Shown here: positions 290 through 55,360 of the stretch, in pieces
How positions within the stretch are numbered: position 1 is the first letter of the stretch
Layout: every line of letters begins with the position of its first letter
NCBI GenBank assembly: GCA_018052565.1
Contig: JAGPNC010000003.1
Coordinates: 587 to 64,586, forward strand
Source: Candidatus Shapirobacteria bacterium
GTDB lineage: Bacteria > Patescibacteriota > Microgenomatia > 0-14-0-10-38-17
Length of the DNA stretch: 64,000 nt
Reading direction: 5' to 3'
Program-made: the position numbers and the translations under genes
The notes under the pieces: generated by a model
The model's database searches: none
Told to the model about the DNA's origin: nothing
The model's input: only the letters and a program-made list of their open reading frames with translations

Positions 290-843
290 AGCCCAAATTG
301 CCTCTTGGCTGCCAGAGAATAACGCGCCCCCTCTGGTGAAAGCTTGCTTTCAAAAAGACCGGCTGAAGAAACCCTGAATTCCCTATCGGGAATTTTTGGC
401 AAAGATTTTTTAAAAACTCTTTCTTTTTTAGCAAAGCGCGTCAGGGTAACATGGGGTAAAAATGGCTTGGGGTCAAAGTAAATATCTTTAGCCAAAAGTT
501 CTTCTCCTAACTTTTGCCGAAAAGAGACAAGCCTTGTCTCGTCCTGACCGGCTATTTTCGCCCAAACTCCCCGTGGCCGGCCGGAGCTGGGGAAAAAAGA
601 AAGACCGGCCAAAGAAAGAGTCAAAGGCTTTTCCTTCGCAACCACCCAGAAAAGCACCTCTTCAATTTTTCTTTCTTCTTCTTTGCCTTTTGGGCCAAAG
701 AAAAAAAGCGTCAGGTGAAAATTCTCCAGTACTAAAGGATGGCCGGGGAGCCTTTCGGTTAAGGAAGAAAAAAGCGAGGTTATCTCCTCCGGTAAAAGAA
801 GCGCCAAGAAAAGCCGTTTATTTTTACTGCTTACCACCGTCAT
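286..843 (-). CDS. thpR: RNA 2',3'-cyclic phosphodiesterase / 2'-5' RNA ligase (2H phosphoesterase family)
   Basis: Two H-x-T-x motifs (HLTLFFFG, HVTLTRF) and a typical N-terminus (KRLFLALLLPEEI). I moved the start to the internal Met at 843; the ORF track extends to 915. It overlaps the upstream gene's stop by 20 nt. Confidence 0.65.
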   Translation of the reverse strand: MTVVSSKNKRLFLALLLPEEITSLFSSLTERLPGHPLVLENFHLTLFFFGPKGKEEERKIEEVLFWVVAKEKPLTLSLAGLSFFPSSGRPRGVWAKIAGQDETRLVSFRQKLGEELLAKDIYFDPKPFLPHVTLTRFAKKERVFKKSLPKIPDREFRVSSAGLFESKLSPEGARYSLAAKRQFGL

Positions 844-1768
844 TTGAAAAATTATCTCCCTTAGCAAGAAAACTAACCTTTTCCCCTTTTGCCTTGGGGG
901 CATAGTCCAAAACAAGTTGCCTTGCTTTTTCCTTCACTCCTTTGCTAATCTTTTGGCCAAAAGACCGCGCTAAAACCGTTGGCCCGGGAATTTCGGCCAA
1001 TTCCACTAAATAATCGCCTTTTTCTCCTAATTTTTTAAGTCTTTCGTTTTCTTCTTCATTCCTGCCTACCACAAACAAAACGTTGTTATCCCAAAAATGG
1101 CGGCCTAATTTAAGAAGAGCCAAATCAGAGGCCGTTGGCCGAGGCACAACTCGGAGGAGATCTTTCAACCGCTGGGAAAAAGCCGGATCAGTTAAAAGAC
1201 AACCGCCCGCGGGCGTTTGGTAATTTTTAAGCCCCCACGCCTTTGCCAAAGCTAATTGTTCTTTCCTTTGCTTTCCCTTAATTGAATAAAGCTTTTCCCG
1301 CAAAATGAGTCCTCTCTCTTCCGCTAAAGTGGGGGGTAAAAGTTTTGCCGAAAGGGGACGCAAAACTAGTCTCTCTGCTCCTGCCTCCCCTTCGATTAAC
1401 TTCAACGCGCCAAGGTTTTGGGAAAAAGGGCGTTGGCCCAAAACATCCCCGGTTACCAAAAAAGAAGCCTGCTCTTCTTCCATTATTTCTTTGGCTTTTT
1501 TTAACATCAAGGCATGGCAATCCCGACAGGGATTTAAACCCTTCCCAAAACCATAACGGGGAGACAAAACCAGCGCTAGTTGCTCTTGGGAAATATCAAC
1601 GATTTTTAAAGGAATTCCCAGCTCCTCAGCCTGCTTTCGGACAATGTTTGGAGGATCAAAAAAGTAGCTTTTAAAAGAAACGCCAATTAAACCAATTTTT
1701 TCCTCTTTAACAATTTTTGCCGCCAAAAGGCTATCCAGGCCACCGGAGAGCAAAACCACCGCCTTCAT
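824..1768 (-). CDS. PP-loop superfamily ATPase (ThiI/LarE-like tRNA sulfurtransferase homolog)
   Basis: N-terminal SGGLDS PP-loop, plus a TGDVLGQRPFSQ segment resembling the ThiI ITGESLGQVASQT motif. Confidence 0.5.
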   Translation of the reverse strand: MKAVVLLSGGLDSLLAAKIVKEEKIGLIGVSFKSYFFDPPNIVRKQAEELGIPLKIVDISQEQLALVLSPRYGFGKGLNPCRDCHALMLKKAKEIMEEEQASFLVTGDVLGQRPFSQNLGALKLIEGEAGAERLVLRPLSAKLLPPTLAEERGLILREKLYSIKGKQRKEQLALAKAWGLKNYQTPAGGCLLTDPAFSQRLKDLLRVVPRPTASDLALLKLGRHFWDNNVLFVVGRNEEENERLKKLGEKGDYLVELAEIPGPTVLARSFGQKISKGVKEKARQLVLDYAPKAKGEKVSFLAKGDNFSNDGGKQ

Positions 1769-1854: not shown

Positions 1855-1878
1855 TCTGAAATACTATGTAGTATTCCA
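1855..1878. promoter_or_regulatory. palindromic operator-like motif, copy 1 (cTGAAATACTA-TG-TAGTATTcc)
   Basis: Inverted repeat read directly from the sequence. It lies about 90 bp upstream of the PP-loop ATPase gene start (minus strand). Confidence 0.4.
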
Positions 1879-1920
1879 AAAAATTCTAAGACATAATTTC
1901 CGCCAACAGAAAACACAACG

Positions 1921-1944
1921 AAATATTACATAGTATTTTAAAAT
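1921..1944. promoter_or_regulatory. palindromic operator-like motif, copy 2 (degenerate, reverse orientation)
   Basis: aaatattacatagtatttta. The reverse complement is aaaatactatgtaatatt, so the same half-sites are present with one mismatch. Confidence 0.3.
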
Positions 1945-1959
1945 AAAAATCTCTTGCGG

Positions 1960-2331
1960 TTATTTCTTCTCTTCGGCGGAGAGAATGCCTAGTTGCTCTA
2001 AAATACGATCAACTTGAGGATGAGAAACGGGCCGGAAACAGTCGGCGGCCATCTTTTTATCAATTTTTTTCTGCCTCTCATCCTCTTCTTGGGGATAAAT
2101 AAAAATTAAATAAATTGCTCTTGCTAATTCCGGCTGGGAAACAAGCAATTGGTGAATTTTACTAATGGTAGTCGGCCCAACGTTGATTTCTTTTTCAATT
2201 TTTTTATATTCATATCCTTTTAAAATTAAAATCGCCACGGCCAATCTTTTGGCAAAAACCTCCCTCTCGCGCGGCGTTAAAAAAATTTCTAAGAAGAGTT
2301 TCTTTTCGAAGGGAGAATCCAGCGACTCCAC
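1960..2331 (-). CDS. TrpR-related YerC/YecD family DNA-binding protein
   Basis: LTPREREVFAKRLAVAILILKGYEYKKIEKEINVGPTTISKI is a conserved YerC/YecD HTH core. The gene is small (123 aa). Confidence 0.65.
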   Translation of the reverse strand: MESLDSPFEKKLFLEIFLTPREREVFAKRLAVAILILKGYEYKKIEKEINVGPTTISKIHQLLVSQPELARAIYLIFIYPQEEDERQKKIDKKMAADCFRPVSHPQVDRILEQLGILSAEEKK

Positions 2332-2732
2332 AAATAAATCAAGATCCGCTAAAATTTTTTCTCGCGTTTTAAAGGAAGCAAAATTTTAGGCAGGCGACTC
2401 ATTTTTCTTTTTAAAACAACTTTCTTTATTCTACAACTTTTTAAAAATTTTAAGAAGAATAAACTTATGAAATATTATGGTGGGAACATAATTCGTCATC
2501 CCGACCCCATTATAAATGACGCTTAGGAGAGGGCTAAAGGGAAGGTGTCATCCTGATGAAAATCAGGATCTGTCTTTAATCTTCAACCAATAATCAATGA
2601 GACAATTTTTAAAAAGACTAATAAATGAAAATTAAAAATTATCTCTTGGTCATGAACCAAGTTCAGGATGGCATTAAACCCCGCCCCGCCGGCAGACAAG
2701 TAAATTTACGACAGCATTAGGAGTTACGCCCT

Positions 2733-2764
2733 AGCTCTAAAATACTATGTAGTATTTCAGAGCT
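2733..2764. promoter_or_regulatory. palindromic operator-like motif, copy 3 (extended: AGCTCTAAAATACTA-TG-TAGTATTTCAGAGCT)
   Basis: Perfect 15-bp arms. It sits in the 0.5 kb noncoding region upstream of the YerC-like gene. Confidence 0.4.
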
Positions 2765-2877
2765 AAAAATGTCAATCATGCCCCTTCTACTACCGCTTTT
2801 TGCTAATGAGCCGCTTGCTCTTTTTAACATTTTTCTCGACAGAAAGCGGACATAAAAAGCCCCTTCCAAATTTAAAT

Positions 2878-6645: not shown

Positions 6646-8394
6646 TCATTGGATTTTTCCTCCGGCCCCGCCCCCGGCGGGGTCAGCCTCGGGCAAGAGC
6701 CCCCCTTGGGCGGGAACTTTCTCTTCTATCTCTCCTTCAAAAAACGGCCGGCCATCATCTTTAAGAATCTGCTGGCCAACATTAAGCCCCGTTTCCATTT
6801 TGACTAATCTGGCCAACTGACCGCTACTGTTATTCTCAATGCTAATAATTTTTTTTGCTTTCCCCAAAATTTCTTTTGCTTCCTGAGGAAACGGCCAAGG
6901 CCGCCAAAAATGCAAAAAATTAACCGCCGATCCTTGTTCCAAAAGCTTTTCCTGCGCCCGCAAAACCGCCGCTTTAGTTGAGCCAAAAGAAACAAGGGTG
7001 ATTTTGGCATCTTTCGGGCCATAAAGAGTGCTACCGGGAGAAGAAAACCCCGCCAGCTTTTTTAACAATTTCTCTTTCATTTTAACTCTTGTCTGAGCGT
7101 CCTCTTGAGAAAATCCTTCCTCATCATGAACATAAGAATTAGTTAAAAATGGGGTTTGGCCGGGAAATGCCCGCGGCGAAATGCCGTCCTCGGTTAATTG
7201 ATAGCGCCGGTAAACTTTTAAGTCCGTCGCGTTGGCTAATTTCCCCCGATTAACCTTTAAGCCCCATTTTTCGGCAGAAAAAAAATCGCTTGAGAAAACG
7301 CTTTCGCTTAAATATTTATCGGTTAAAACCACCACCGGCAGCTGGTAAATTTCCGCTAAATTAAAGGCCTCAAAAGTAAGCCGATAAGCCTCAGCCGGAT
7401 CACCCGGGGAAAAAATAATTCGGGGAAATTCCCCCTGCCCGGCGGAGATTAAAAACAGCAAGTCCTCTTGCGAGGTCCAGGTGGCCATACCAGTTGAGGG
7501 ACCGGTGCGCATCCCCTCCACTACCACCAAAGGAATTTCGGCGGCTCCGGCCATGCCAAAAGCCTCAACCATTAAAGAAAACCCGCCGCCGGAGGTGGCC
7601 ACCATCGCCCGCCGGCCGGCAAAAGAAGCACCAATAGCGCTGTTAATTCCCGCAATTTCATCTTCGGGGGTAAAAACAATCATTTTATTCTCCTCTTTTT
7701 TTTGCGCTAAAATCGCCAAAATGGAGTTAATGGGCGTCATCGGATAAATAGCGGCAAAGCCAACTCCGGCTTCCAAGGCCCCCCGGGAGATAGCTTCATT
7801 ACCACTCAAAAACAACTGACTTTTCCCGACCTTCGGCAGCGGGGGAACATCTTTTCCTGCCCAGCTGATTTTAGCGGCCATTTTGTATCCTTCCTCCGCC
7901 GCCTTTTGGTTGCCGCTCACCACTTTTTCTCCCTTAGCACTAAAAGCATTTTTAAGACTCTCTCTTAAGGCCGAAAAAGGTAAGCCCATAAGGCCAAAAA
8001 CAGCGCCGGCGGCTACCGAGTTGCGCGCCAAAAAAAATCCGGCTGTTTTTTGAGCAATTTCGTCCAACGGCAAACCAACTGCTTCGCTATATTGAAGTGG
8101 TTTGTTTTCCCCTGTGTTATATAATAATAATCCTCCCTTTTTTCTCTCCGATAAATACAAGGGAATATTTTCCGGAGAAAAAATCACCAAAAGATCGCTT
8201 TTTTTCTCGGGAAGAGGCGAGGAATGGTCGGCAGAAAAAGAAATCTGGCTCACATTATCACCCCCCCGAATACGCGAAGGATATTCGGGATAAGAAAGAA
8301 CCGAAAAACCTAAACTGCTTAATGCCTCTCCCACCGCCCGTCCGCCTTCCATAATCCCAAAACCAGCGGGAGCGGAAAATTTAATCGAAAACAT
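6646..8394 (-). CDS. porA: 2-oxoacid:ferredoxin oxidoreductase, fused gamma/alpha subunit (3' end altered by a repeat insertion)
   Basis: N-terminal gamma-like domain followed by alpha-subunit motifs (GNEAISRGALEAGVGFAAIYPMTP). The last ~25 codons are the translation of a GC-rich repeat core (6661-6715). Confidence 0.7.
   Translation of the reverse strand: MFSIKFSAPAGFGIMEGGRAVGEALSSLGFSVLSYPEYPSRIRGGDNVSQISFSADHSSPLPEKKSDLLVIFSPENIPLYLSERKKGGLLLYNTGENKPLQYSEAVGLPLDEIAQKTAGFFLARNSVAAGAVFGLMGLPFSALRESLKNAFSAKGEKVVSGNQKAAEEGYKMAAKISWAGKDVPPLPKVGKSQLFLSGNEAISRGALEAGVGFAAIYPMTPINSILAILAQKKEENKMIVFTPEDEIAGINSAIGASFAGRRAMVATSGGGFSLMVEAFGMAGAAEIPLVVVEGMRTGPSTGMATWTSQEDLLFLISAGQGEFPRIIFSPGDPAEAYRLTFEAFNLAEIYQLPVVVLTDKYLSESVFSSDFFSAEKWGLKVNRGKLANATDLKVYRRYQLTEDGISPRAFPGQTPFLTNSYVHDEEGFSQEDAQTRVKMKEKLLKKLAGFSSPGSTLYGPKDAKITLVSFGSTKAAVLRAQEKLLEQGSAVNFLHFWRPWPFPQEAKEILGKAKKIISIENNSSGQLARLVKMETGLNVGQQILKDDGRPFFEGEIEEKVPAQGGLLPEADPAGGGAGGKIQ
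6661..6715. repeat. GC-rich hairpin-core repeat inside the 3' end of porA
   Basis: ccggccccgcccccggcggggtcagcctcgggcaagagccccccttgggcgggaac resembles the cores at 20141, 24223 and 39291. Confidence 0.6.
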
Positions 8395-8693: not shown

Positions 8694-8696
8694 GCC

Positions 8697-8830
8697 TTGA
8701 AAAGTTAAAAGTTAAAAATAAAATTCAAAATGCAAAAATCAAAGTTCAAAATTGCAAGTTAAAAATTGAAAGTTTTTACTCTACTTTTGAATTTTTTCAT
8801 TGTAAGTAATTTTGACTTTTGACTTTTTTA
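8697..8830. repeat. AT-rich palindromic k-mer spacer element (aaaagtYaaaagt family)
   Basis: Left arm aaaagttaaaagttaaaaat…caaaattgcaagttaaaaattgaaagt, mirrored by ttttgaatttt…ttttgacttttgactttt. Confidence 0.8.
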
Positions 8831-9026
8831 TTATACCCTCTTGCAAAAGATAATAAGATCTCTAATAATATATCATAAATATCCCTTAAGGTGCGGGCCA
8901 TTGTCATTTTGACGAGAAGGCCAAATTTTAAAAAACAGGGAAGACCCTAATTTTTGGGGAACGGTGCCGCCGCGGTGAAAGTCCGAAGACCTACCTTAAG
9001 GAAGCTGTCCCGGCCAGGACAAGATT

Positions 9027-19576: not shown

Positions 19577-19869
19577 TTTTTATTCAAATAATTAGTTAAA
19601 AATAAAAAATGTTTAATTAAAGTTTGGCCGATAAGGGTTTTCTCTCATAATTATAAGACATTATAATTGTTTATTCCGTCTTTGTCAACGGCTCTTCCGC
19701 AACTCCCGACGTCGATTAGCTTCGAACCTCAGGGTTTTTCAGCACCTAAAATACTATAAGCACTCCATTATCCCGCCTTATGCGTGATCTCTCGGAAAGA
19801 GACTATGTAGTAATGGAGTAAGTTTAGATAGATTCTAAACCTCATGCCAGAGGGGCGCAGAATAGGCTG

Positions 19870-20235
19870 GTTAAAATTTTCTTATTCACTTTTGACTTTT
19901 TATTTGTACTTTTGACTTTTAAATTTTAACTTTTAACTTTTCTTCTCAATATTGCCCCTTAATGCTACACCTTAAGGGTGGGTTCCTGCTTGCCCCCTTG
20001 GCATTCCAGACTATCAAGCTCCGCTCTTGCGCGGCAAGACGATTTATTGTAAGCTAGAATTGTTTAAATTCAAAAGTTAAAATTCAAAATGCAAAATTAC
20101 AATTCAAAATCCAAAATTTTTAATTTTAACTTGCAATTTTTCCGCCAGAGGCGCAGGCCAGAGGTCTGTCGGCCTTGGGCAGAGACCCGCCTTGGGCGGG
20201 AACTTTTGACTTTTAACTTTTGACTTTTAACTATT
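19870..20235. repeat. composite spacer: AT-rich arms + GC-rich nested-hairpin core (core at 20141-20200)
   Basis: The core is tccgccagaggcgcaggccagaggtctgtcggccttgggcagagacccgccttgggcggg, flanked by acttttgacttttaacttttgactttt arms. Confidence 0.8.
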
Positions 20236-20238
20236 TCC

Positions 20239-21108
20239 GTGGAACAGCATCCCATTCCCCAACACATTTCGTCTTACGAGTTTCGCCTTATTGGTGAAAT
20301 GACCCTGGGCCAGTTTGCCCGCGTCGCCGGCGGAGTAATTGTAGCGCTTATTTTTTATGCCCTCCCCCTGCCCGGCTTTATTGGGTGGTTTTTAGTTCTC
20401 CTTTCGGCCGGCTTAGGAATCGCCTTCGCTTTCCTCCCCGTTGAGGGTCGACCACTGGAAGTTTGGCTTCTTGCTTTTCTTCGCTCAATTTATTCCCCCA
20501 CGCAATATGTTTGGCGAAAAGTGGTTGCCTCTTTTGATTTCCAAACCCAAACCCCCTCTCCCGAAGAAACCGTACCAGCAATTTCTGCCTCAAAAACCCT
20601 GACACCCCAAGAGCTGGCCCTTCTGCGCACTTTCGGACAGAAGGATACTGAGTTTTATAGCGAGGAAGAAATTAAGAAAGCCCAGGCGTTTCTCGCTCTT
20701 TATCAGCAGCCTGCCAACGCGACGCCTTCTCCTTCTTCGTTGACTGACATTAAAAAAGAAGAAAAAGCCAAAGAAGCCCGCTTCGAGGAAGGCCTTCCCT
20801 TCCCTGCTCCCCCAGATGAACCAAACATCATTGTCGGCATGGTTATCGATAAAAACGGCAAAATCGTGGAAGGAGCCATTATTGAGATAAAGAGCAGGGA
20901 GGGGGAAACCGTCCGGGCAATGAGGAGCAACAAATTAGGACAGTTTCGGACAATTTCTCCCCTGGTAAACGGCGAATACCGAATTTCCTGCGAGAAAGAG
21001 GGGCTTAATTTTGATATAATGAAAATTAAACTTGAGGGAAAAATTCTCCCGCCGGTAGAGATAAGAGAAAAGGGCCCTAAAACAACAAATAATACCCAAG
21101 AGGAATAG
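20239..21108 (+). CDS. PrgI/VirB3-like T4SS membrane protein with C-terminal carboxypeptidase-regulatory-like beta domain
   Basis: The N-terminus (SSYEFRLIGEMTLGQFARVAGG) matches the PrgI-family pattern, followed by two TM segments. GTG start. It sits two genes upstream of the VirB4-like gene. Confidence 0.5.
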   Translation: MEQHPIPQHISSYEFRLIGEMTLGQFARVAGGVIVALIFYALPLPGFIGWFLVLLSAGLGIAFAFLPVEGRPLEVWLLAFLRSIYSPTQYVWRKVVASFDFQTQTPSPEETVPAISASKTLTPQELALLRTFGQKDTEFYSEEEIKKAQAFLALYQQPANATPSPSSLTDIKKEEKAKEARFEEGLPFPAPPDEPNIIVGMVIDKNGKIVEGAIIEIKSREGETVRAMRSNKLGQFRTISPLVNGEYRISCEKEGLNFDIMKIKLEGKILPPVEIREKGPKTTNNTQEE

Positions 21109-22274: not shown

Positions 22275-24128
22275 ATGCCTAATCCTATCAACCAACTATT
22301 AGAAAAAATTAAACCTCCTAAAAAAGAAAGCCCGGCAAAAGAGGCCGCCGCCGCAAAAGAAAGCGGCGAAACTTTCGGCGCCGGCGTGCCCACCATTAAA
22401 GATATCATCGCCCCCTCGGCCATCGAGGTTGACTTTTCCTATCTTAAAATTGACAATAAATATTTGCGAACTTTTTTTGTAGCTGGCTATCCCCGTTTCG
22501 TTTCCGCTAACTGGCTCTCTCCTTTAATTAATTTTGACCACACCTTGGATATTTCTATGTTTATTTATCCGGTAGAAATAAAAGGAACTATGGACGATCT
22601 ACGCCGGAAAATTGCCGAAATGGAAGCGGAAATTTCCACCGATATCCAGCGAGGGCGAGTTGTTGACCCCTCCACCCAGGCTAAATTGGAAGACGCCTTG
22701 GCGCTTCAGGAAGAATTAGCCAAAGGAACCGAGCATTTCTTCCAGTTCGGCCTTTATATCACTATTCCCGCCGATTCCCTCCAGGAGTTGGAAGAGGTAA
22801 GCCGTGAAGTTGAGGCCACCCTGGGGTCGCTTTTAATCATTGCCAAAACAGCGAGCCTGCAAATGGAAGAAGGTTTTAAAACCACTCTCCCTATTGGCAT
22901 TGATTTTTTGAACATCAGCCGTAATATGGATACCACCTCGCTGGCGACCACTTTCCCCTTTACTTCTTCGGAGCTCACGGCCAACGAAGGAATTTTATAT
23001 GGCGTTAATCAACATAATGGTTCTTTGGTTATTTTTGATCGCTTCAATCTGGAAAATTCTAATGCCGTTATTTTTGGCAAGTCCGGCTCAGGAAAAAGCT
23101 ATCTGGTAAAACTTGAAGCCCTCCGTTCTTTAATGATGGGAACAGAATTAATTATTATTGACCCGGAAGAGGAATACCGCCAGCTGAGCGAGGCCGTTGG
23201 AGGAGAATATATTAAGTTTGGCTTTGGCTCACGGGCAAAAATTAACCCCTTTGACCTTCCCAGCCAGCAATTATCATTCCCGGGTGAAAAAACAGAAAAT
23301 GAACTTGGCTTCAAGCTTCTTTCCCTCCACTCTCTCTTAAAAATAATGTTAGGGGAAATGAGCGCTAATGAAGAGGCCATCCTTGACCGGGCGCTGGTGG
23401 CCACTTATAAAAGCAAGGGAATTACCCCCGATCCTGTTACTTACGAACAGGAGCCGCCGCTTTTAGAAGATCTTTACAAAACTCTTCTGGGAATGGAGAG
23501 CAAAGAAGGTCAACTTTTAGCCACCCGTTTGGAAAAATTTGTTAAGGGTTCGCTGACGGGGATTTTTGACCAGCATTCTAATGTTAATCTAAAAAATCCG
23601 TTTACGGTTTTTTCCCTAAAAGACGTTGAGGGTGACTTAAGGCCGGTGGTGATGTTTATTATCCTTGATTACATTTGGACCAAAGTAAAGGCCGAGATTA
23701 AAAAAAGAATCGTCATTGTTGACGAAGCGTGGTATTTAATGCGTTATCCTGATTCGGCCCAATTTTTGGAATCGATCGCCAAAAGAGCGCGTAAATATTA
23801 TTTAGGCCTTTCCACCATCACCCAAGATGTTCCCGACTTTCTCTCCTCGCCCTATGGAGAATCAATTATCACCAACTCTTCTGTGCAAATTTTAATGAAA
23901 CAGCATCCGGCCGCCATCGACCGCTTAGGGGAGGTCTTTTATCTCTCCGAAGGAGAGAAAAATTTTCTTTTATCCGCCAATATCGGCGAGGGGCTCTTCT
24001 TTGCCGGGGACAATCATGTGGCGATTAAGGTAATTTCCTCCCCCCAAGAGCATAAGTTAGTCGGTTCCAGTCCGAAAGAAAAAACAGTCGCGGTGGCCAA
24101 AGAAGCCAAAGAAACGGAAGAAAAATAA
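22275..24128 (+). CDS. VirB4/TraE/PrgJ-family type IV secretion ATPase
   Basis: Walker A GKSGSGKS and Walker B VIVDEAWY. The N-terminal region is typical of PrgJ/TrsE. I set the start at the ATG at 22275; the ORF-track start (22254) lies inside the repeat. Confidence 0.8.
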   Translation: MPNPINQLLEKIKPPKKESPAKEAAAAKESGETFGAGVPTIKDIIAPSAIEVDFSYLKIDNKYLRTFFVAGYPRFVSANWLSPLINFDHTLDISMFIYPVEIKGTMDDLRRKIAEMEAEISTDIQRGRVVDPSTQAKLEDALALQEELAKGTEHFFQFGLYITIPADSLQELEEVSREVEATLGSLLIIAKTASLQMEEGFKTTLPIGIDFLNISRNMDTTSLATTFPFTSSELTANEGILYGVNQHNGSLVIFDRFNLENSNAVIFGKSGSGKSYLVKLEALRSLMMGTELIIIDPEEEYRQLSEAVGGEYIKFGFGSRAKINPFDLPSQQLSFPGEKTENELGFKLLSLHSLLKIMLGEMSANEEAILDRALVATYKSKGITPDPVTYEQEPPLLEDLYKTLLGMESKEGQLLATRLEKFVKGSLTGIFDQHSNVNLKNPFTVFSLKDVEGDLRPVVMFIILDYIWTKVKAEIKKRIVIVDEAWYLMRYPDSAQFLESIAKRARKYYLGLSTITQDVPDFLSSPYGESIITNSSVQILMKQHPAAIDRLGEVFYLSEGEKNFLLSANIGEGLFFAGDNHVAIKVISSPQEHKLVGSSPKEKTVAVAKEAKETEEK

Positions 24129-24129
24129 T

Positions 24130-24355
24130 ACCTAATTCAAAAGTCAAAAGTCAAAATTCAAAATTACAATTAAAAAGTTAAAAGTTTTTCGCTTTACTTT
24201 TAACTTTTAGCTTTTGACTTTTTCCGCCAGAGGCGCACCCGCCTTGGGCGGGATCAGCCTTGGGCAGAGACCCGCCTCGGGTGGGAACTTTTGACTTTTA
24301 ATTTTTAATTATTACATTGCGTTCTAACTTTTGACTTTTAACTTTTGACTTTTTC
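24130..24355. repeat. composite spacer with GC core (24223-24285)
   Basis: Core tccgccagaggcgcacccgccttgggcgggatcagccttgggcagagacccgcctcgggtggg. Confidence 0.8.
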
Positions 24356-27300: not shown

Positions 27301-27742
27301 GGAAAATTCTGACCTTGATTCTTCGGTTAAACAAAGACTAATCGCGATTATTAAAGATCAGGTCAGTAGATACGGAACCCTACAGTGCGTTGGTTTTATT
27401 CAGGCAATAGAAGGCAGTCTCTTTCCTTCTTGCGGTTCAAGCGCCAGTGATTGGGCCCAAGAAAAATGCTGGCAAAATAATAATTACTATTTCCTAAACA
27501 ACAATATTAGTCTTGTTCAGGAGGGAGACATCGCCGTAACTGCCGGAAGCAGTCCCGGCAGCAGTGGCCATATTGGCTTTATTACTAAAATCTATAGAGA
27601 TGGTAGCGGCAATATCCAAAAACTTCTTTTTGTTTCTGCTTGGGGTGGCGGCCAGGACGGGAATGGTGGTAATATTAATGCGAAGATCGTGCCCTGGGAC
27701 TATTTCACGAGCAGGGGCTATCTTTTTATCCATCGAAAATGA
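24359..27742 (+). CDS. T4SS cell-wall hydrolase, PrgK/VirB1-like (lytic transglycosylase + CHAP domains) with long N-terminal linker and TM segment
   Basis: SLT-like E…GVMQF segment around 26650-26900. A C-terminal CHAP-like Cys/His pair (C…GHIGFI). TM helix near aa 690. Confidence 0.65.
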   Translation: MPDQDKLILSRQTAELLLQGIAFFKENPTAKKWKNLDKDLFIFLCRELCQLPLEEEENFDEYLARAEELLKRIIGEELTAPSLPQNLEELVEAWESFATQKDAQAPPSPRINLPTVEDWIKALKEKRVEEEIAPRVRKALQTTLPHLSQKDQASLGKQISQEIAKSPFFVLPQEEKEAVVQRAVEKSLGEKQIVLGEEQKQALAKAMVTPSLPRKEPKPKETITPPVFKKFQEQIEQVLRTSLETTGKIDEETLAELSPLISGAVASNLPLLSQGELEALSLADKSKIAEGTTTAALGTIGKALVAKGISLSPSQTATLLDQLTITAISNLESLAPVLPENRLPQEKTPETEGTATPILTFLLHPKETATLILNPQTRRSLEALDRDPSLPFSLVLEGEETSRGEQIKNIFLLRGINFQSINLAAPLEEETQALVLAAKGITSADISSAIKAAREENWPAEEIRRLEEIFSRQLKFERDFPGLTQRFFRFRKAKEIISGQKNDQRLPSRPYLKIKSQTSFDTARWKALKIINSFLEKIGLVEKETTVSGKIIQSSKIWYYLQKAFQPVASFWQKTNIGKTIADWLSRQTYHFWQDALGQIRGFSQAGVKKAVQEGTKKGVTKAITWLSTKLAATKLGAALGSIAPGIGNAIGAVAGFLVDLGISFFKKGGEFLEKLTGGQTEAEQKLKVALGPFSFLVSPLAIIVIGAAIIPLLLVFHDSANTQSLFFVSEDGGGGVLPPSSRLILPSLELAEIIKRAAKDICVPEALLLAISRTEAARAWGYSSEEVKLFSTPNWWETPGAPICRGLCYNTCNPGECSQWDPDCAWTNYGGISQEADVRGVMQFELNTFNGYRNELLGILGREPHRCLIPDSIYAAALKIKADSGTDNTQCDDWSDEIVRKVAKAYCGSCDSPNCPNYCDIVLYYYHDYQNSLDIITNPSSNPNGLIAEKIAVIMARCNHDPDGYGFINASTQNAAIGCLENSDLDSSVKQRLIAIIKDQVSRYGTLQCVGFIQAIEGSLFPSCGSSASDWAQEKCWQNNNYYFLNNNISLVQEGDIAVTAGSSPGSSGHIGFITKIYRDGSGNIQKLLFVSAWGGGQDGNGGNINAKIVPWDYFTSRGYLFIHRK

Positions 27743-28380
27743 CCAAATTATTTTCTTTCCTCCGCTCGATAAACAAAACTGCCATCATCGTGGCCATAAT
27801 AATAATTATTATTATGGCCACTTATTTGGCAAATCATTTAGAAGAACCGCTTTCATTAATAGAGACTACCCCCAAGAATAGCCAAGAGAATGTTTCTCTT
27901 GATACTGAGATTATTCTAACCTTTAATCAGCCAATCAATGATCAGCAGCTGCTTATCAGAACAGAACCTTTTTTTGAATATCAAGTCAAGAAGCAAGGAA
28001 ATAAGGCAATAATTATCCCCAGCCATCCCCTTGTTTCTGGCCAGAGATATTATCTCTATATCAGCTATGGCCAAAACAAGGAAGAGCTGGTTTTTTTTAG
28101 CACGATAGAAAAAAGCAGGCAACAGGTTAATCCCAAAACGATCGATGATTCAAAAATTGCCGAAGATATGGACCAATACATAAAAGAGAATTACCCCCTC
28201 CTTGGAGTCACCCCTAAAAAAACAGCTAACTGGACTGCCGATTATCTTAGCAAAAAGAAATTAATTATTACCTATAAAAAAGGCCTTTATCCAGAAACCA
28301 TTAGGCAAGAAGTCTTTGCTTGGATAAAAAGCTTCGGGCTTGATCCAAACAGCCACGAATATATCTGGGAGGAAAAATAG
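27739..28380 (+). CDS. hypothetical membrane-anchored protein (paralog family with the next two genes)
   Basis: N-terminal TM. The C-terminal W-x-x-S-x-G-L motif is shared with 28791 and 29308. Confidence 0.45.
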   Translation: MTKLFSFLRSINKTAIIVAIIIIIIMATYLANHLEEPLSLIETTPKNSQENVSLDTEIILTFNQPINDQQLLIRTEPFFEYQVKKQGNKAIIIPSHPLVSGQRYYLYISYGQNKEELVFFSTIEKSRQQVNPKTIDDSKIAEDMDQYIKENYPLLGVTPKKTANWTADYLSKKKLIITYKKGLYPETIRQEVFAWIKSFGLDPNSHEYIWEEK

Positions 28381-28790: not shown

Positions 28791-29258
28791 ATGAAAAGAA
28801 ATAATCTTTTTCTTGTTATCATCTTAGTCTTTGGAGTTGCTTTCTTATTCCTCAGGCAATTTATTGTCCAAACCGAAGAGGAAAATTCTTTATTCGAAAA
28901 AGATTACCACTCCATCTCGCCCACGAAAGAAGTTATTTCGCCCACGAAAGAAGTTATTTCGCCCACGAAAGAAGTTATTTCGCCCACGAAAGAAGTTATT
29001 TCGCCCACGAAAGAAGTTATTTCGCCCACAGAAGAAGAAATAGACTATCTCCAAAAAGAAAAACTCATAAGCCTTCTTCCTGTTAGAAAGTCAGATTTTG
29101 ATATGGAATATCTAGCTCAAGATAACGTCTTTATTGTTTTGATCTCCGCCAATGACTTCAATGCCGGAAAAAGAAAAGCAATCAGTTGGCTGGAAAGCCA
29201 AGGCATTAGTAACTGGGAAAAATTACCTCTTATCTGGGGAAAAAAGGGAGGATTTTAA
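28791..29258 (+). CDS. hypothetical membrane-anchored protein containing 6x SPTKEVI heptad repeats
   Basis: N-terminal TM, a tandem 21-bp coding repeat, and a C-terminal domain paralogous to 29308. Confidence 0.5.
   Translation: MKRNNLFLVIILVFGVAFLFLRQFIVQTEEENSLFEKDYHSISPTKEVISPTKEVISPTKEVISPTKEVISPTKEVISPTEEEIDYLQKEKLISLLPVRKSDFDMEYLAQDNVFIVLISANDFNAGKRKAISWLESQGISNWEKLPLIWGKKGGF
28917..29042. repeat. 6 x 21-bp perfect tandem repeat (tcgcccacgaaagaagttatt), last unit degenerate
   Basis: Read directly. It lies in frame within CDS 28791-29258, encoding (SPTKEVI)x5 plus SPTEEEI. Confidence 0.9.
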
Positions 29259-36189: not shown

Positions 36190-36310
36190 AAATGATCAAA
36201 AATTTAAAAGTTAAAAGTCAAAAGTTCCCGCCCAAGGCGGATCCGCCTCTGGCGGAAAAATTGCAAGTTAAAATTAAAAATTTTGGATTTTGAATTGTCA
36301 TTTTGCATTT
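36190..36310. repeat. composite spacer with short GC core (36226-36255, inverted orientation)
   Basis: gttcccgcccaaggcggatccgcctctggcgga between aaaagtcaaaagt arms. Confidence 0.75.
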
Positions 36311-36413
36311 TGACTTTTGATTTTTGAATTTAATTAAAAAACACATTTTGATTGGTAGTAATTGATGAGTAATCACGATTTTTGTCAAGGGGGATAATTT
36401 ACCGTTAATTTTT

Positions 36414-39204: not shown

Positions 39205-39375
39205 AAAATATTTAACGCAAAAATCAAAGATTAGAGATTAGAACCTAAATCAAAGCTCAAAAATATTTTTACATTTTGTTTTTAGTCTTTTCCGCCAGAG
39301 GCGCAGGCCAGAGGTCTGTCGGCCTTGGGCAGAGACCCGCCTTGGGCGGGAACTTTTAACTTTTGACTTTTAACT
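39205..39375. repeat. composite spacer with GC core (39291-39350), adjacent to the tmRNA 3' end
   Basis: The core is identical to the 20141-20200 copy. Confidence 0.8.
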
Positions 39376-39385
39376 TTTCTGCACA

Positions 39386-39749
39386 GGTGGAGATGGGGAG
39401 GAATGACCTCCCGTCCGAAAAAAACCCTTCTGAATTTCTCCAAGCTCAGTTAGCCCTTTAAATTTTCTTTTGGGATTTTCGCTGCTAACCGCTTTTCCCA
39501 AAAATAGCCTTTAATTCTCTGCTTTTTTTCTTAAGGCGAAGAAAAAAAGCGCCTCTTGCCTTCCGTTTTCACCTTCCCTGCCCCGACAAGAGAGGGAAAA
39601 GAAGATGCTTTTCCTTACGCGAAAGCGTAATTCAAAGAGTAGTCGACATTATTGTCGGCATTCTTTTTTGGTGAATTTTGACAGGGTAATCACCTTCCCT
39701 GGCTTGCCCTTCAGAACAGGCTTTCTCCGTCGATTCAAAGAGCATCCCC
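39386..39749 (-). ncRNA. ssrA: transfer-messenger RNA (tmRNA, SsrA)
   Basis: The 5' end GGGGAUGCUCUUUGAAUCGACGG matches the tmRNA consensus GGGGCUGAUUCUGGAUUCGACGG. The 3' end GGACGGGAGGUCAUUCCUCCCCAUCUCCACC closes an acceptor stem carrying the G3·U wobble. Internal tag reading frame: ADNNVDYSLNYAFA-UAA. The gene lies directly downstream of smpB. Confidence 0.7.
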
Positions 39750-39900
39750 AAAAAACTAAATTCAAAATTCACAAGTCAAAAATCAAAAGTACAAGTAAAA
39801 ATTCAAAATTGAAACAAAAACTTTTAACCTTTTACTTGTAATTTTGACTTTTGAGTTTTAACTTTTGACTTTTCTACGCAATTTGGCCATTTAGCAATAG
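39750..39900. repeat. AT-rich palindromic spacer element between smpB and ssrA
   Basis: aaattcaaaattcacaagtcaaaaatcaaaagtacaagtaaaaattcaaaattg… mirrored by ttttacttgtaattttgacttttgagttttaacttttgactttt. Confidence 0.75.
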
Positions 39901-44599: not shown

Positions 44600-44695
44600 C
44601 AAAATTCAAAATTTAAAATTCAAAAGTGAGGTAAAAAGCTTTTAGCTTTTAACTTGTAATTTTGAATTTTGCCTTTTGCATTTTGAATTTTTTTA
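44600..44695. repeat. AT-rich palindromic spacer element (between tRNA-Ser and tRNA-Arg GCG)
   Basis: ggtcaaaattcaaaatttaaaattcaaaagtgaggtaaaaagc… mirrored by ttttagcttttaacttgtaattttgaattttgccttttgcattttgaattt. Confidence 0.75.
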
Positions 44696-44696
44696 G

Positions 44697-44770
44697 TGCG
44701 CCTGGGGCGATTTGAACGCCCAACCGCCAGCTCCGCAAGCTGATGCTCTATCCAGTTGAGCTACAGGCGC
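44697..44770 (-). tRNA. tRNA-Arg (anticodon GCG as read)
   Basis: Manual fold: acceptor GCGCCUG, D-arm GCUCAACUGGAUAGAGC, anticodon stem UCAGC/GCUGG, loop UUGCGGA, T-loop UUCAAAU. Confidence 0.7.
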
Positions 44771-47452: not shown

Positions 47453-47804
47453 AGAGGTATAATAAAAAAGTATCAATTATCATATATTAGATATTAAGTA
47501 TAAAAATTACAGAAGATAAAAAGAAACTGCCCCTAACCTGTCATCCTGATGAAAATCAGGATCTATCTACAGCAAGGAAATTCCAAATTACAAACAATTT
47601 CTAATAACCAAAATCCTAAATTCAAAATAAAAAGAGAAGGCGGACAATGCGAGTAGCGTTTCTTGTTTAGAAAATTTAGAAATTGGAATTTAGAATTTGT
47701 TTGCGATTTGCCTCCCTGCGGGAGGTCTCTTGTAGGGAGATTATTTGGGGCTTGGAATTTTCTTGCCGTAACAACTCGGTGATAGAGCAATTTACCCGCT
47801 AACG

Positions 47805-54258: not shown

Positions 54259-54300
54259 AGTAAAAAATAATATTATCGAAAAGGTTTGTCATTCTGGTGA

Positions 54301-54324
54301 TTGAAATACTATGTAGTATTTCAA
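54301..54324. promoter_or_regulatory. palindromic operator-like motif, copy 4 (TTGAAATACTA-TG-TAGTATTTCAA)
   Basis: Perfect 11-bp arms, about 110 bp upstream of the nucleoside hydrolase gene. Confidence 0.4.
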
Positions 54325-54433
54325 TAAATAGAGAAAGACGGAGCAGCCGACATTAAATGCTCTAAAGCATTTCAGAATAAGGAAAAGTTGCTTGCTAAAA
54401 AGTAAAGACAGCCGCTTTTGATAAAATCATTTT

Positions 54434-55360
54434 ATGGTGAAAGTTCATCTTGATACCGACTTGGGAGGCGATATTGACGATCTTTGCGCTTTGGCAATGC
54501 TTTTAAAGTGGCCGAAAGTGAGAATTACAGGGATTACCACCGTGGCTGACGACAAGGGAATAAGGGCTGGCTTTGTAAAGTATGCCCTGAAATTGGCAGG
54601 GAAAAGTGATATTCCTGTTAAGGCTGGCGCCGATATTTCTTTAGGGCGTTATCGTGTTCGGCGCGGCTACCAAGACGAGAGATATTGGCCCAAGGAGGCA
54701 ATCAAAAGGGCAAAAAATCCCATTGGTGAAGCGTTGGCACTTTTAAAAAAAAGCATTGCTGAGGGGGCAATCATCATCGGCATCGGCCCGCTTACCAACC
54801 TTTATCTTCTTGGTAAGAAATATCCCGGCATTTTGCGCCAGGCGAAATTATTTTTGATGGGGGGCTATATTTATCCACCCCGAGACGGTTATCCCCGATG
54901 GGGGCAAAATTATGATTTTAATATCCAGGTGGATGTTAAAGCCGCCAAAGAGGTTTTAGAAAATTCCTGCCCTACCCTGGTGCCGCTAACGGTAACAATT
55001 GAGACATTTCTTAGGCAAGCCTATTTGGGAAAACTAAGGCAGTCAGACGATTTAAATAGACTTCTTGCTAAGCAGGCAGAAGTTTTTGCCGATGACGAGA
55101 AAATAGCGGAAAAGTATGGCAGAGTCTGTCCTAAACTCCCTGATGATATTATTAATTTTCAGCATGATCCCTTAACAACAGCGATTGCTTTAGGCTGGCA
55201 TGATGGCGTTGAGTTTAAAGGTTTGCCCTTGCGTTTTAGTATTCAGAATGGATGGTTAAAGGAGATGGTTGATAAATCAAGCCAAAAATTTTATCGGGTG
55301 GTGACGAAAATAGACGGAGAAAAATTTAGCCGCTTTTGGTTAGAAAGAGTAATCGCTTGA
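54434..55360 (+). CDS. inosine-uridine-preferring nucleoside hydrolase family protein
   Basis: N-terminal DTDLGGDIDDLCAL motif (DxDxxxDD). Confidence 0.75.
   Translation: MVKVHLDTDLGGDIDDLCALAMLLKWPKVRITGITTVADDKGIRAGFVKYALKLAGKSDIPVKAGADISLGRYRVRRGYQDERYWPKEAIKRAKNPIGEALALLKKSIAEGAIIIGIGPLTNLYLLGKKYPGILRQAKLFLMGGYIYPPRDGYPRWGQNYDFNIQVDVKAAKEVLENSCPTLVPLTVTIETFLRQAYLGKLRQSDDLNRLLAKQAEVFADDEKIAEKYGRVCPKLPDDIINFQHDPLTTAIALGWHDGVEFKGLPLRFSIQNGWLKEMVDKSSQKFYRVVTKIDGEKFSRFWLERVIA

Follow-up and report, generated by a model that had tools for sequence, protein, structure and literature searches.

Palindromes that recur around a regulatory gene raise the question of whether the protein encoded between them is the one that reads them. 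This arrangement is found in a Candidatus Shapirobacteria bacterium, one of the Patescibacteria or candidate phyla radiation (CPR), in which gene regulation is almost unstudied. Within a 64,000-nucleotide stretch of contig JAGPNC010000003.1 (positions 587 to 64,586; hereafter the window), a 22-bp palindrome lies on both sides of a gene for a TrpR-fold regulator (1960-2402, minus strand) and again ahead of a nucleoside hydrolase gene. An earlier note made from the same letters had proposed that the palindrome is the operator of the adjacent helix-turn-helix (HTH) protein, that the gene is autoregulated and that the sites define a small regulon, a proposal which comparative genomics supports. 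The palindromes are probably the operators of the TrpR-fold protein encoded between them, which would repress its own gene, control a small regulon specific to its lineage and co-evolve with its operators.

The 22-mer TGAAATACTATGTAGTATTTCA, composed of the arms TGAAATACTA and TAGTATTTCA around a central TG, is present in four copies in the window when up to 3 mismatches are tolerated, against a chance expectation of 0.01, and none of the shuffled sequences equalled this count. The repeat described in the earlier note is thus real, and its coordinates were right to within 2-4 bases. Upstream of the regulator gene, site U has its core at 2738-2759 (1 mismatch to the 22-mer) within a palindrome spanning 2732-2765; the extended arms reported previously are present, as 16-bp arms with one mismatch rather than the 15-bp arms of 2733-2764. 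The center of site U lies 346 bp upstream of the regulator ATG, and ~330 bp of window-specific DNA (2403-2737), absent from close relatives, separates site and gene. Past the stop codon follow site D1 (1919-1940; best on the minus strand, where it reads TAAAATACTATGTAATATTTCG; 3 mismatches), centered 30 bp beyond the stop codon at the position of the family-wide downstream palindrome described below, and site D2 (1857-1878, TGAAATACTATGTAGTATTCCA, 1 mismatch), centered 92 bp beyond the stop codon and 100 bp ahead of the start codon of a PP-loop ATPase gene. Site 4 (54302-54323, 0 mismatches) sits within a perfect palindrome with 12-bp arms (54300-54325, ATTGAAATACTA-TG-TAGTATTTCAAT) whose center precedes the nucleoside hydrolase start by 121 bp. 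A generalised pattern, GAAATRCT-N4-AGYATTTC, located a fifth site that the earlier list had missed: site 5 (54354-54373, TAAATGCTCTAAAGCATTTC, 1 mismatch to the pattern) is a G:C variant (GAAAT-G-CT/AG-C-ATTTC) situated between site 4, at a distance of 51 bp, and the nucleoside hydrolase start codon, 70 bp further on.

The four full copies of that list stand, whereas its partial copy at 19802 does not: the match (19800-19813) has 2 mismatches in a 14-bp core and was discarded because ~1.7 matches of this stringency are expected by chance. Frequent occurrence inside coding regions genome-wide had been named as grounds for giving up the operator proposal; all five sites (U, D1, D2, 4 and 5) are intergenic in a window that is ~80% coding. 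The motif is also unrelated to the abundant AT-rich heptamer repeats of the window, as had been supposed. The LexA SOS box, the NrdR box and the ARG box were dropped as candidates since their half-sites and spacing differ. Neither at the sites nor within the spacer of 2403-2737 did Rfam give a match, whether gathering or permissive thresholds were applied, and the spacer shows no folding signal (z -1.4 and -1.5). The spacer contains a 30-nt hairpin, gtcATCCTGATgaaaATCAGGATct, at 2546-2575, which recurs at 47539-47568.

The association between palindrome and regulator gene extends to distant relatives. When the 18-mer AAATACTAYRTAGTATTT was scanned against one genome per species (185,579 species), 105 stretches were recovered, mostly chance matches in A+T-rich taxa (Firmicutes and others), the useful ones being confined to CPR; the genome of the window is not among them. 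A profile of the regulator family finds the regulator in exactly three of these 105 stretches (two Woesebacteria and one Sungiibacteriota), two of which encode proteins of 34-35% identity over the N-terminal 83-86 residues. All three have the motif 3-12 bp from the regulator start codon; a second copy is placed 5 bp beyond the stop codon or overlaps it in two, and a weaker second copy is present in the third. One Patescibacteria genome (at least 0.85 Mb) carries four exact copies of the motif.

A scan of metagenomes with the regulator alignment yielded a further 80 loci (27-47% identity), in which palindromes were sought without assuming any particular sequence. At most of these loci the same 24-30 bp palindrome flanks the regulator gene on both sides, its centers preceding the start codon by 12-35 bp and following the stop codon by 12-45 bp. 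Among the 62 loci that are non-identical and have enough flank, 32 have a matched palindrome pair, compared with none of the 157 other open reading frames (ORFs) in the same loci that served as controls. An upstream palindrome accompanies 31 of the 62 regulators (5 of the 157 controls) and a downstream palindrome 26 (10 of the 157 controls). Co-occurrence of motif and regulator in related genomes, which the earlier note had put forward as a check, is thus found in three CPR genomes and in the matched pairs of the metagenome loci.

The palindromes themselves are lineage-specific (for example ACTTCAATGATTT/AAATCATTGAAGT, ATTCCAATACTAT/ATAGTATTGGAAT, TAGTTCGATA/TATCGAACTA and TTATACACC/GGTGTATAA), and the two copies at each locus are alike. 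The paired copies stay alike while the palindromes change between lineages, even where the flanking genes are conserved, and the type of palindrome tracks the type of recognition helix. A clade of eight loci combines constant neighbors (an M23/PcsB-like peptidase upstream and a secreted protein downstream) with diverging palindromes. Across relatives the neighbors of the regulator share no common functional theme (ArgRS, NusA, ribosomal protein L3, FemAB, M23 peptidase, GNAT), and in the 8-kb loci of relatives the copies are found almost only beside the regulator gene.

Close relatives retain the layout of the window. Where the regulators are 88-94% (loci L001, L005 and L006) or ~76% (L112) identical, three sites are kept, one upstream at -103 to -121 from the regulator start and two after the stop codon; the D1 position is occupied in L001, L005 and L112, as it is in distant relatives, and D2 is conserved in L001, L005 and L006. 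Loci with regulators of 76-78% identity (L002-L004 and L113) have the G:C variant upstream (GAAATGCT-TTAA-AGCATTTC) and either the G:C variant or AAATACTATATAGTATTT downstream. The variant seen in site 5 thereby flanks the regulator itself in L002, L003 and L113, and therefore the two variants belong to one site family and site 5 is validated. The genomes of these close relatives are too near one another for conservation alone to prove function.

The internal structure of the palindromes relates them to operators of the TrpR superfamily. The palindrome halves repeat themselves directly when shifted by 8 bp (match fraction of 0.44 vs 0.31 in shuffles, z = 10.3), while shifts of 4 and 7 are depleted. 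TrpR half-sites (GNACT) likewise recur every 8 bp (PMC9413887), and the palindromes of 22-30 bp agree in both length and periodicity with the ~20 bp palindrome and 8-bp half-site repeat of operators in this superfamily. The upstream copies lie over promoters, with TTGACA or TTGACT ~17-18 nt before a TATATA- or TAGTAT-like center and the start codon 13-25 nt past the center. A -35-like hexamer (at least 5/6 matches) accompanies 9 of 35 upstream copies, compared with a background of 7% and with 1 of 29 downstream copies. Downstream copies are present both where the next gene is co-directional (36 loci) and where it is convergent (28 loci), and because they are independent of orientation and lack a -35 element they are not simply the promoter of the next gene. 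The centers of upstream and downstream copies cluster at a spacing of 482-487 bp (~484 bp, standard deviation 8, loci L112-L191), even where the C-terminus is 8 codons shorter; taken over all loci, this spacing shows no significant helical phasing (Rayleigh p 0.35-0.87). Differences in C-terminal length are compensated by the gap between stop codon and downstream copy (r = -0.81, permutation p = 0.0003), but this is not counted as selected spacing, because one or two ancestral stop-codon shifts could explain it.

The promoter geometry of the family can be traced at two sites of the window, where we infer candidate promoters. A perfect TTGACA (2770-2775, minus strand) stands as a candidate -35 element 18 nt upstream of TACATA at the center of site U, and TTGTCA (5/6; 54286-54291, plus strand) stands 18 nt upstream of TATGTA at the center of site 4, as a candidate promoter of the nucleoside hydrolase gene. 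A consensus promoter scan of the window was uninformative at the sites, and did not list the candidate at site U because TACATA lacks the final T. Sites D1 and D2 lack this geometry, and at D2, read by eye, no -35-like hexamer stands in the family position.

The same anatomy bears on whether the palindromes are instead hairpins in RNA or DNA, serving as terminators of the upstream gene or as 5' and 3' stem-loops that stabilize or sequester the regulator mRNA. The arms are long and near-perfect, their extensions differ and yet remain complementary (GCTCT...AGAGC in the window vs CTATTCA...TGAATAG in L001 and L005), and the upstream palindromes of L001, L005 and L003 have a T-run behind them. 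An intrinsic terminator would combine a G+C-rich stem with a T-run, whereas a terminator scan of the window found nothing at any site, the stems being A+T-rich with no T-run following; the downstream copies of relatives also lack T-runs. Mismatches within the arms show no bias towards G.U on the sense strand (13 G.U, 13 A.C and 18 of transversion type), such palindromes are not shared by other genes of the same loci, and hairpins would leave both the 8-bp periodicity of the arms and the fixed-distance -35 element unexplained. Hairpin function is a very improbable account of the palindromes.

The protein encoded between the sites is a member of the TrpR superfamily that is neither HisR/YerC nor TrpR proper. 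The window ORF passes Pfam PF01371 (Trp_repressor; 37.9 bits vs a cut-off of 27, E 1.9e-9), which is present in all homologues found, but misses the cut-offs of TIGR02531 (YerC/YecD, equivalent to HisR; 21.1 bits vs 42.2) and of TIGR01321 (the equivalog model of TrpR proper; 18.1 bits vs 67.25). Assignment to the YerC/YecD family, made in the earlier note, is thus correct as to the TrpR likeness and incorrect as to the family, from which an additional C-terminal helix also sets the protein apart. The family profile matches the HisR/YerC-like structures 3frw, 3kor and 3g1c with E values of 1e-13 to 1e-15; for E. coli TrpR the value is ~0.01. An AlphaFold2 model of the single chain (predicted local distance difference test, pLDDT, of 86.3) contains the TrpR helices together with the long additional helix (residues 91-124), the protein being ~45 residues longer at its C-terminus than HisR, and the top 42 Foldseek matches in the PDB are all TrpR or HisR-like (target-normalised TM-scores of 0.66-0.79). 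By hhalign, Thr, Ser and Lys align with TrpR T81, T83 and R84, which have been named as DNA-contact residues (PMC9413887). At E <= 1e-10 the family comprises 1,928 cluster representatives (50% identity), mostly of 140-190 aa, and those members whose source is named are all from CPR bacteria.

Alignments and translations place the regulator start at ATG 2402, so that the gene bounds of 1960-2331 given previously are too short. The annotated product restarts at GTG 2331 and has 123 aa, compared with 147 aa in relatives. At 2367-2370 the window has a run of A4 where four relatives have A5, and this 1-nt frameshift disrupts the frame opened at ATG 2402 after 12 codons and leads it to a stop after 17 codons, with the restart at GTG 2331. 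The frameshift is either a homopolymer assembly error or a real lesion. The database holds an identical protein, annotated as from Candidatus Shapirobacteria bacterium.

In the TrpR superfamily the DNA-binding form is an intertwined homodimer that depends on a small-molecule co-repressor. Comparison with E. coli TrpR, whose gene is itself autoregulated, shows a shared fold (target-normalised TM-scores of 0.7-0.79), a palindromic operator, an 8-bp half-site repeat that permits tandem dimers, and Thr and basic residues at the DNA-contact positions. The proteins differ in motif (AAATACTAT/ATAGTATTT here vs TGTACTnGTnnACnAGTACA for TrpR) and in length (~147 aa with the added C-terminal helix), no trp biosynthesis targets are found in these CPR loci, and TrpR is not known to have a further operator past the 3' end of its gene, as the present family does. 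HisR (YerC/YecD) supplies the closest solved relatives and also has palindromic, lineage-specific operators. The HisR consensus (cacTTTA-N6-TAAAgtg) lies upstream of genes for his biosynthesis or transport (PMC9413887); in the form cacTTTAnnnnnnTAAAgtg it is unmatched by the window motif, his genes are absent nearby, HisR lacks the additional ~45 residues, and bracketing operators are not known for it. Lineage-specific palindromes of 20 bp are known for TrpR-family regulators, which are often autoregulatory, and for HisR, where about half of the hisR genes are autoregulated (PMC9413887). Autoregulation through lineage-specific palindromes is thus already known from TrpR and HisR, and the new features are the longer protein and the conserved operator pair that encloses its gene. 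A literature search found no description of these proteins or of operators bracketing the gene.

The co-variation of palindrome and recognition helix also bears on whether a different DNA-binding protein reads the sites, the TrpR-like gene being merely one of its targets. Several CPR genomes do carry the motif at loci with no family gene within the 8 kb examined, but in each lineage such a protein would have to change in step with the palindrome and at the same time always have the two ends of this one gene as its targets, and the architecture (20-30 bp palindrome with 8-bp periodicity) fits operators of the TrpR family; we consider this very improbable. Least probable of all is a small mobile or selfish cassette with the repeats as recombination sites or terminal repeats, for although a single sequence, which qualifies as a direct repeat as well as an inverted one, stands close on either side of the gene, a few additional motif copies occur elsewhere, and the L002/L113 and L003 regulators (95% identical) are followed by complete sequence divergence right past the stop codon, the protein has a TrpR fold with no transposase, recombinase or HUH domain, the neighbors are housekeeping genes, one clade keeps both neighbors while its palindromes diverge, copies in the 8-kb loci lie almost only beside the gene, the window has a single gene copy, and no relatives of the regulator were found among 2.9 million viral contigs. 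The nearest model for such a cassette would be repetitive extragenic palindromes (REPs) with their REP-associated tyrosine transposases (RAYTs), where palindromic repeats likewise lie on both sides of a single-copy gene and have further copies in the rest of the genome. RAYTs are relatives of HUH/Y1 transposases and REPs number tens to hundreds per genome, whereas the gene here encodes a putative HTH repressor and the palindrome has five copies in 64 kb.

If the palindromes are operators of the TrpR-fold protein, it would bind each of them as one dimer or as two dimers side by side, because TrpR half-sites repeat every 8 bp, and the additional C-terminal helix may mediate higher-order assembly. 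The upstream copy, which in the wider family covers the -10 element and spacer of the regulator's own promoter, would mediate negative autoregulation, since binding there would shut the regulator gene off. The downstream copy would be a second anchor, either blocking RNA polymerase at the end of the gene, by analogy with LacI at O3, or alternatively forming a loop of ~484 bp with the upstream copy. From O3, at the end of lacI, LacI blocks the elongating polymerase and also loops with another operator (PMC3711431), and this operator at the 3' end of its own repressor's gene is the nearest precedent for the downstream copy. LacI belongs to a different protein family, and lac O3 is part of the control region of the next operon, whereas here identical copies enclose the regulator gene only and recur family-wide; a roadblock or loop is suggested here by analogy. 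The layout in the window would then consist of site U, the gene, and sites D1 and D2, with the further pair before the nucleoside hydrolase gene as a recent addition to the regulon. What the analysis shows directly is the association of motif and gene, their co-variation across lineages, the fold of the protein, the overlap with promoters and the 8-bp periodicity; binding and its sign, an effector molecule and the role of the downstream copy are what we infer.

Several points weigh against this interpretation. About half of the 62 relatives lack a clear palindrome under the criteria used, and the co-variation of palindrome and recognition helix was counted without regard to kinship, so that shared descent may contribute to it. 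In the lineage of the window the upstream site lies 100-350 bp from the start codon with no obvious core promoter beneath it, and the terminator-like T-runs in L001, L005 and L003 make it possible that the upstream palindrome there also terminates the gene before it. Barring an assembly error, the frameshifted protein of the window may be truncated or inactive. Lastly, arms of 13-18 bp, often perfect, exceed the needs of a single HTH dimer, a length for which the 8-bp periodicity provides an explanation in the form of four half-sites and hence two dimers or a tetramer.

A broader generalization is more tentative, and we hold it to be possible rather than likely: that across CPR the TrpR-fold family forms self-bracketing autoregulatory cassettes, in which two matching operators ~484 bp apart, the upstream one over the promoter and the downstream one a roadblock or loop anchor, would provide LacI-O3-like control of transcript completion and insulation from neighboring genes while co-evolving with the recognition helix. 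Bacterial repressors do not usually have a conserved second operator at the 3' end of their gene, and if the generalization is true, such operators could reveal the means by which a regulator is insulated or fine-tuned in very small genomes where classical terminators are scarce. Operators co-evolving with the recognition helix would likewise constitute a natural series for the recognition code of the TrpR fold. For CPR the loci provide a transcription factor and its probable operator as a clean pair open to testing, and dozens of variants occur naturally in which a changed helix goes together with changes in both operators.

The regulon predicted for the window is modest, comprising the regulator, perhaps the PP-loop ATPase/thpR operon, and the nucleoside hydrolase. 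The nucleoside hydrolase gene (IU_nuc_hydro, Pfam 111.6 bits; 54434-55360, plus strand) had been proposed as a regulon member on account of its upstream copy. In L192, where the hydrolase is 81% identical and the ORF upstream of it is similar in size (142 aa) to its window counterpart, sites 4 and 5 fall inside the longest conserved blocks of the intergenic alignment, but in L193-L195 (hydrolases 72-76% identical) there is no palindrome upstream of the nucleoside hydrolase. Since the sites are kept at 81% identity and absent at 72-76%, the hydrolase would be a recent member, and it is a candidate in the lineage of the window only.

The PP-loop ATPase gene (824-1768, minus strand), which has an NFACT-R_2 domain, lies downstream of D1 and D2 and is followed by thpR (286-915). 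Copies of the motif had been taken as promoter sites of a PP-loop ATPase/thpR/galU cluster, an assignment that fits poorly with a downstream pair that is family-wide, independent of orientation and without a -35 element. The ORF called galU is moreover on the opposite strand and convergent with thpR, and thus cannot be co-transcribed with it. A conserved TATAAT is positioned 6 nt before the ATPase ATG, ~85 bp from D2, and because of this distance and the absence of promoter geometry any effect of D1 and D2 on the ATPase would be exerted by blocking read-through and not by promoter occlusion. The PP-loop ATPase and thpR are thereby a possible target through read-through control.

Palindrome copies beside other genes were also observed in relatives and in other CPR genomes. 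In one lineage (metagenome loci L131 and L133, ~540 bp past the regulator stop), the palindrome TAAAATGATTTGAATCATTTTA marks several gene starts in a row, standing ahead of the regulator, of a GNAT acetyltransferase and of the gene after that. The exact motif is found upstream of several genes in L028, L045, L066 and L092 (Patescibacteria SBF912LR0HQ0104) and in L093, these genes encoding exonuclease III together with a divergent Ogt-like protein, Hsp20, an LD-carboxypeptidase, a DUF3175 protein and another exonuclease III-like protein. The functions of these genes may point to stress or repair as the business of the targets elsewhere in CPR, but the genes are too few to name a regulon.

The window contains further repeats. 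The AT-rich family (heptamers AAAAGTC, AAAATTC and AAAAGTT) is very abundant, occupying more than 20 intergenic regions (for example 8695-8840, 19860-20240, 24120-24350, 39750-39880 and 44600-44700), often as long inverted pairs; one such pair (20064-20153 and 36244-36333) is 90 nt long and 96% complementary across 16 kb. A G+C-rich repeat of ~40 nt, GTCGGCCTTGGGCAGAGACCCGCCTTGGGCGGGAACTTT, has four copies (6682-6720, 20168-20206, 24253-24291 and 39318-39356), each adjoining AT-rich repeats and one next to the transfer-messenger RNA (tmRNA) gene (39385-39749). Within coding sequence, a perfect palindrome with 15-bp arms (GTGGCCATAATAATA-AT-TATTATTATGGCCAC, 27790-27821) lies at the start of ORF 27739-28380, and ~8 copies of a 21-nt tandem repeat (7 codons; 28893-29058) lie within ORF 28791-29258. 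Finally, the intergenic stretch 19690-19860, which includes the discarded match at 19802, contains the complementary segments ACTCCATTA and TAATGGAGT and could be an unannotated structured RNA.

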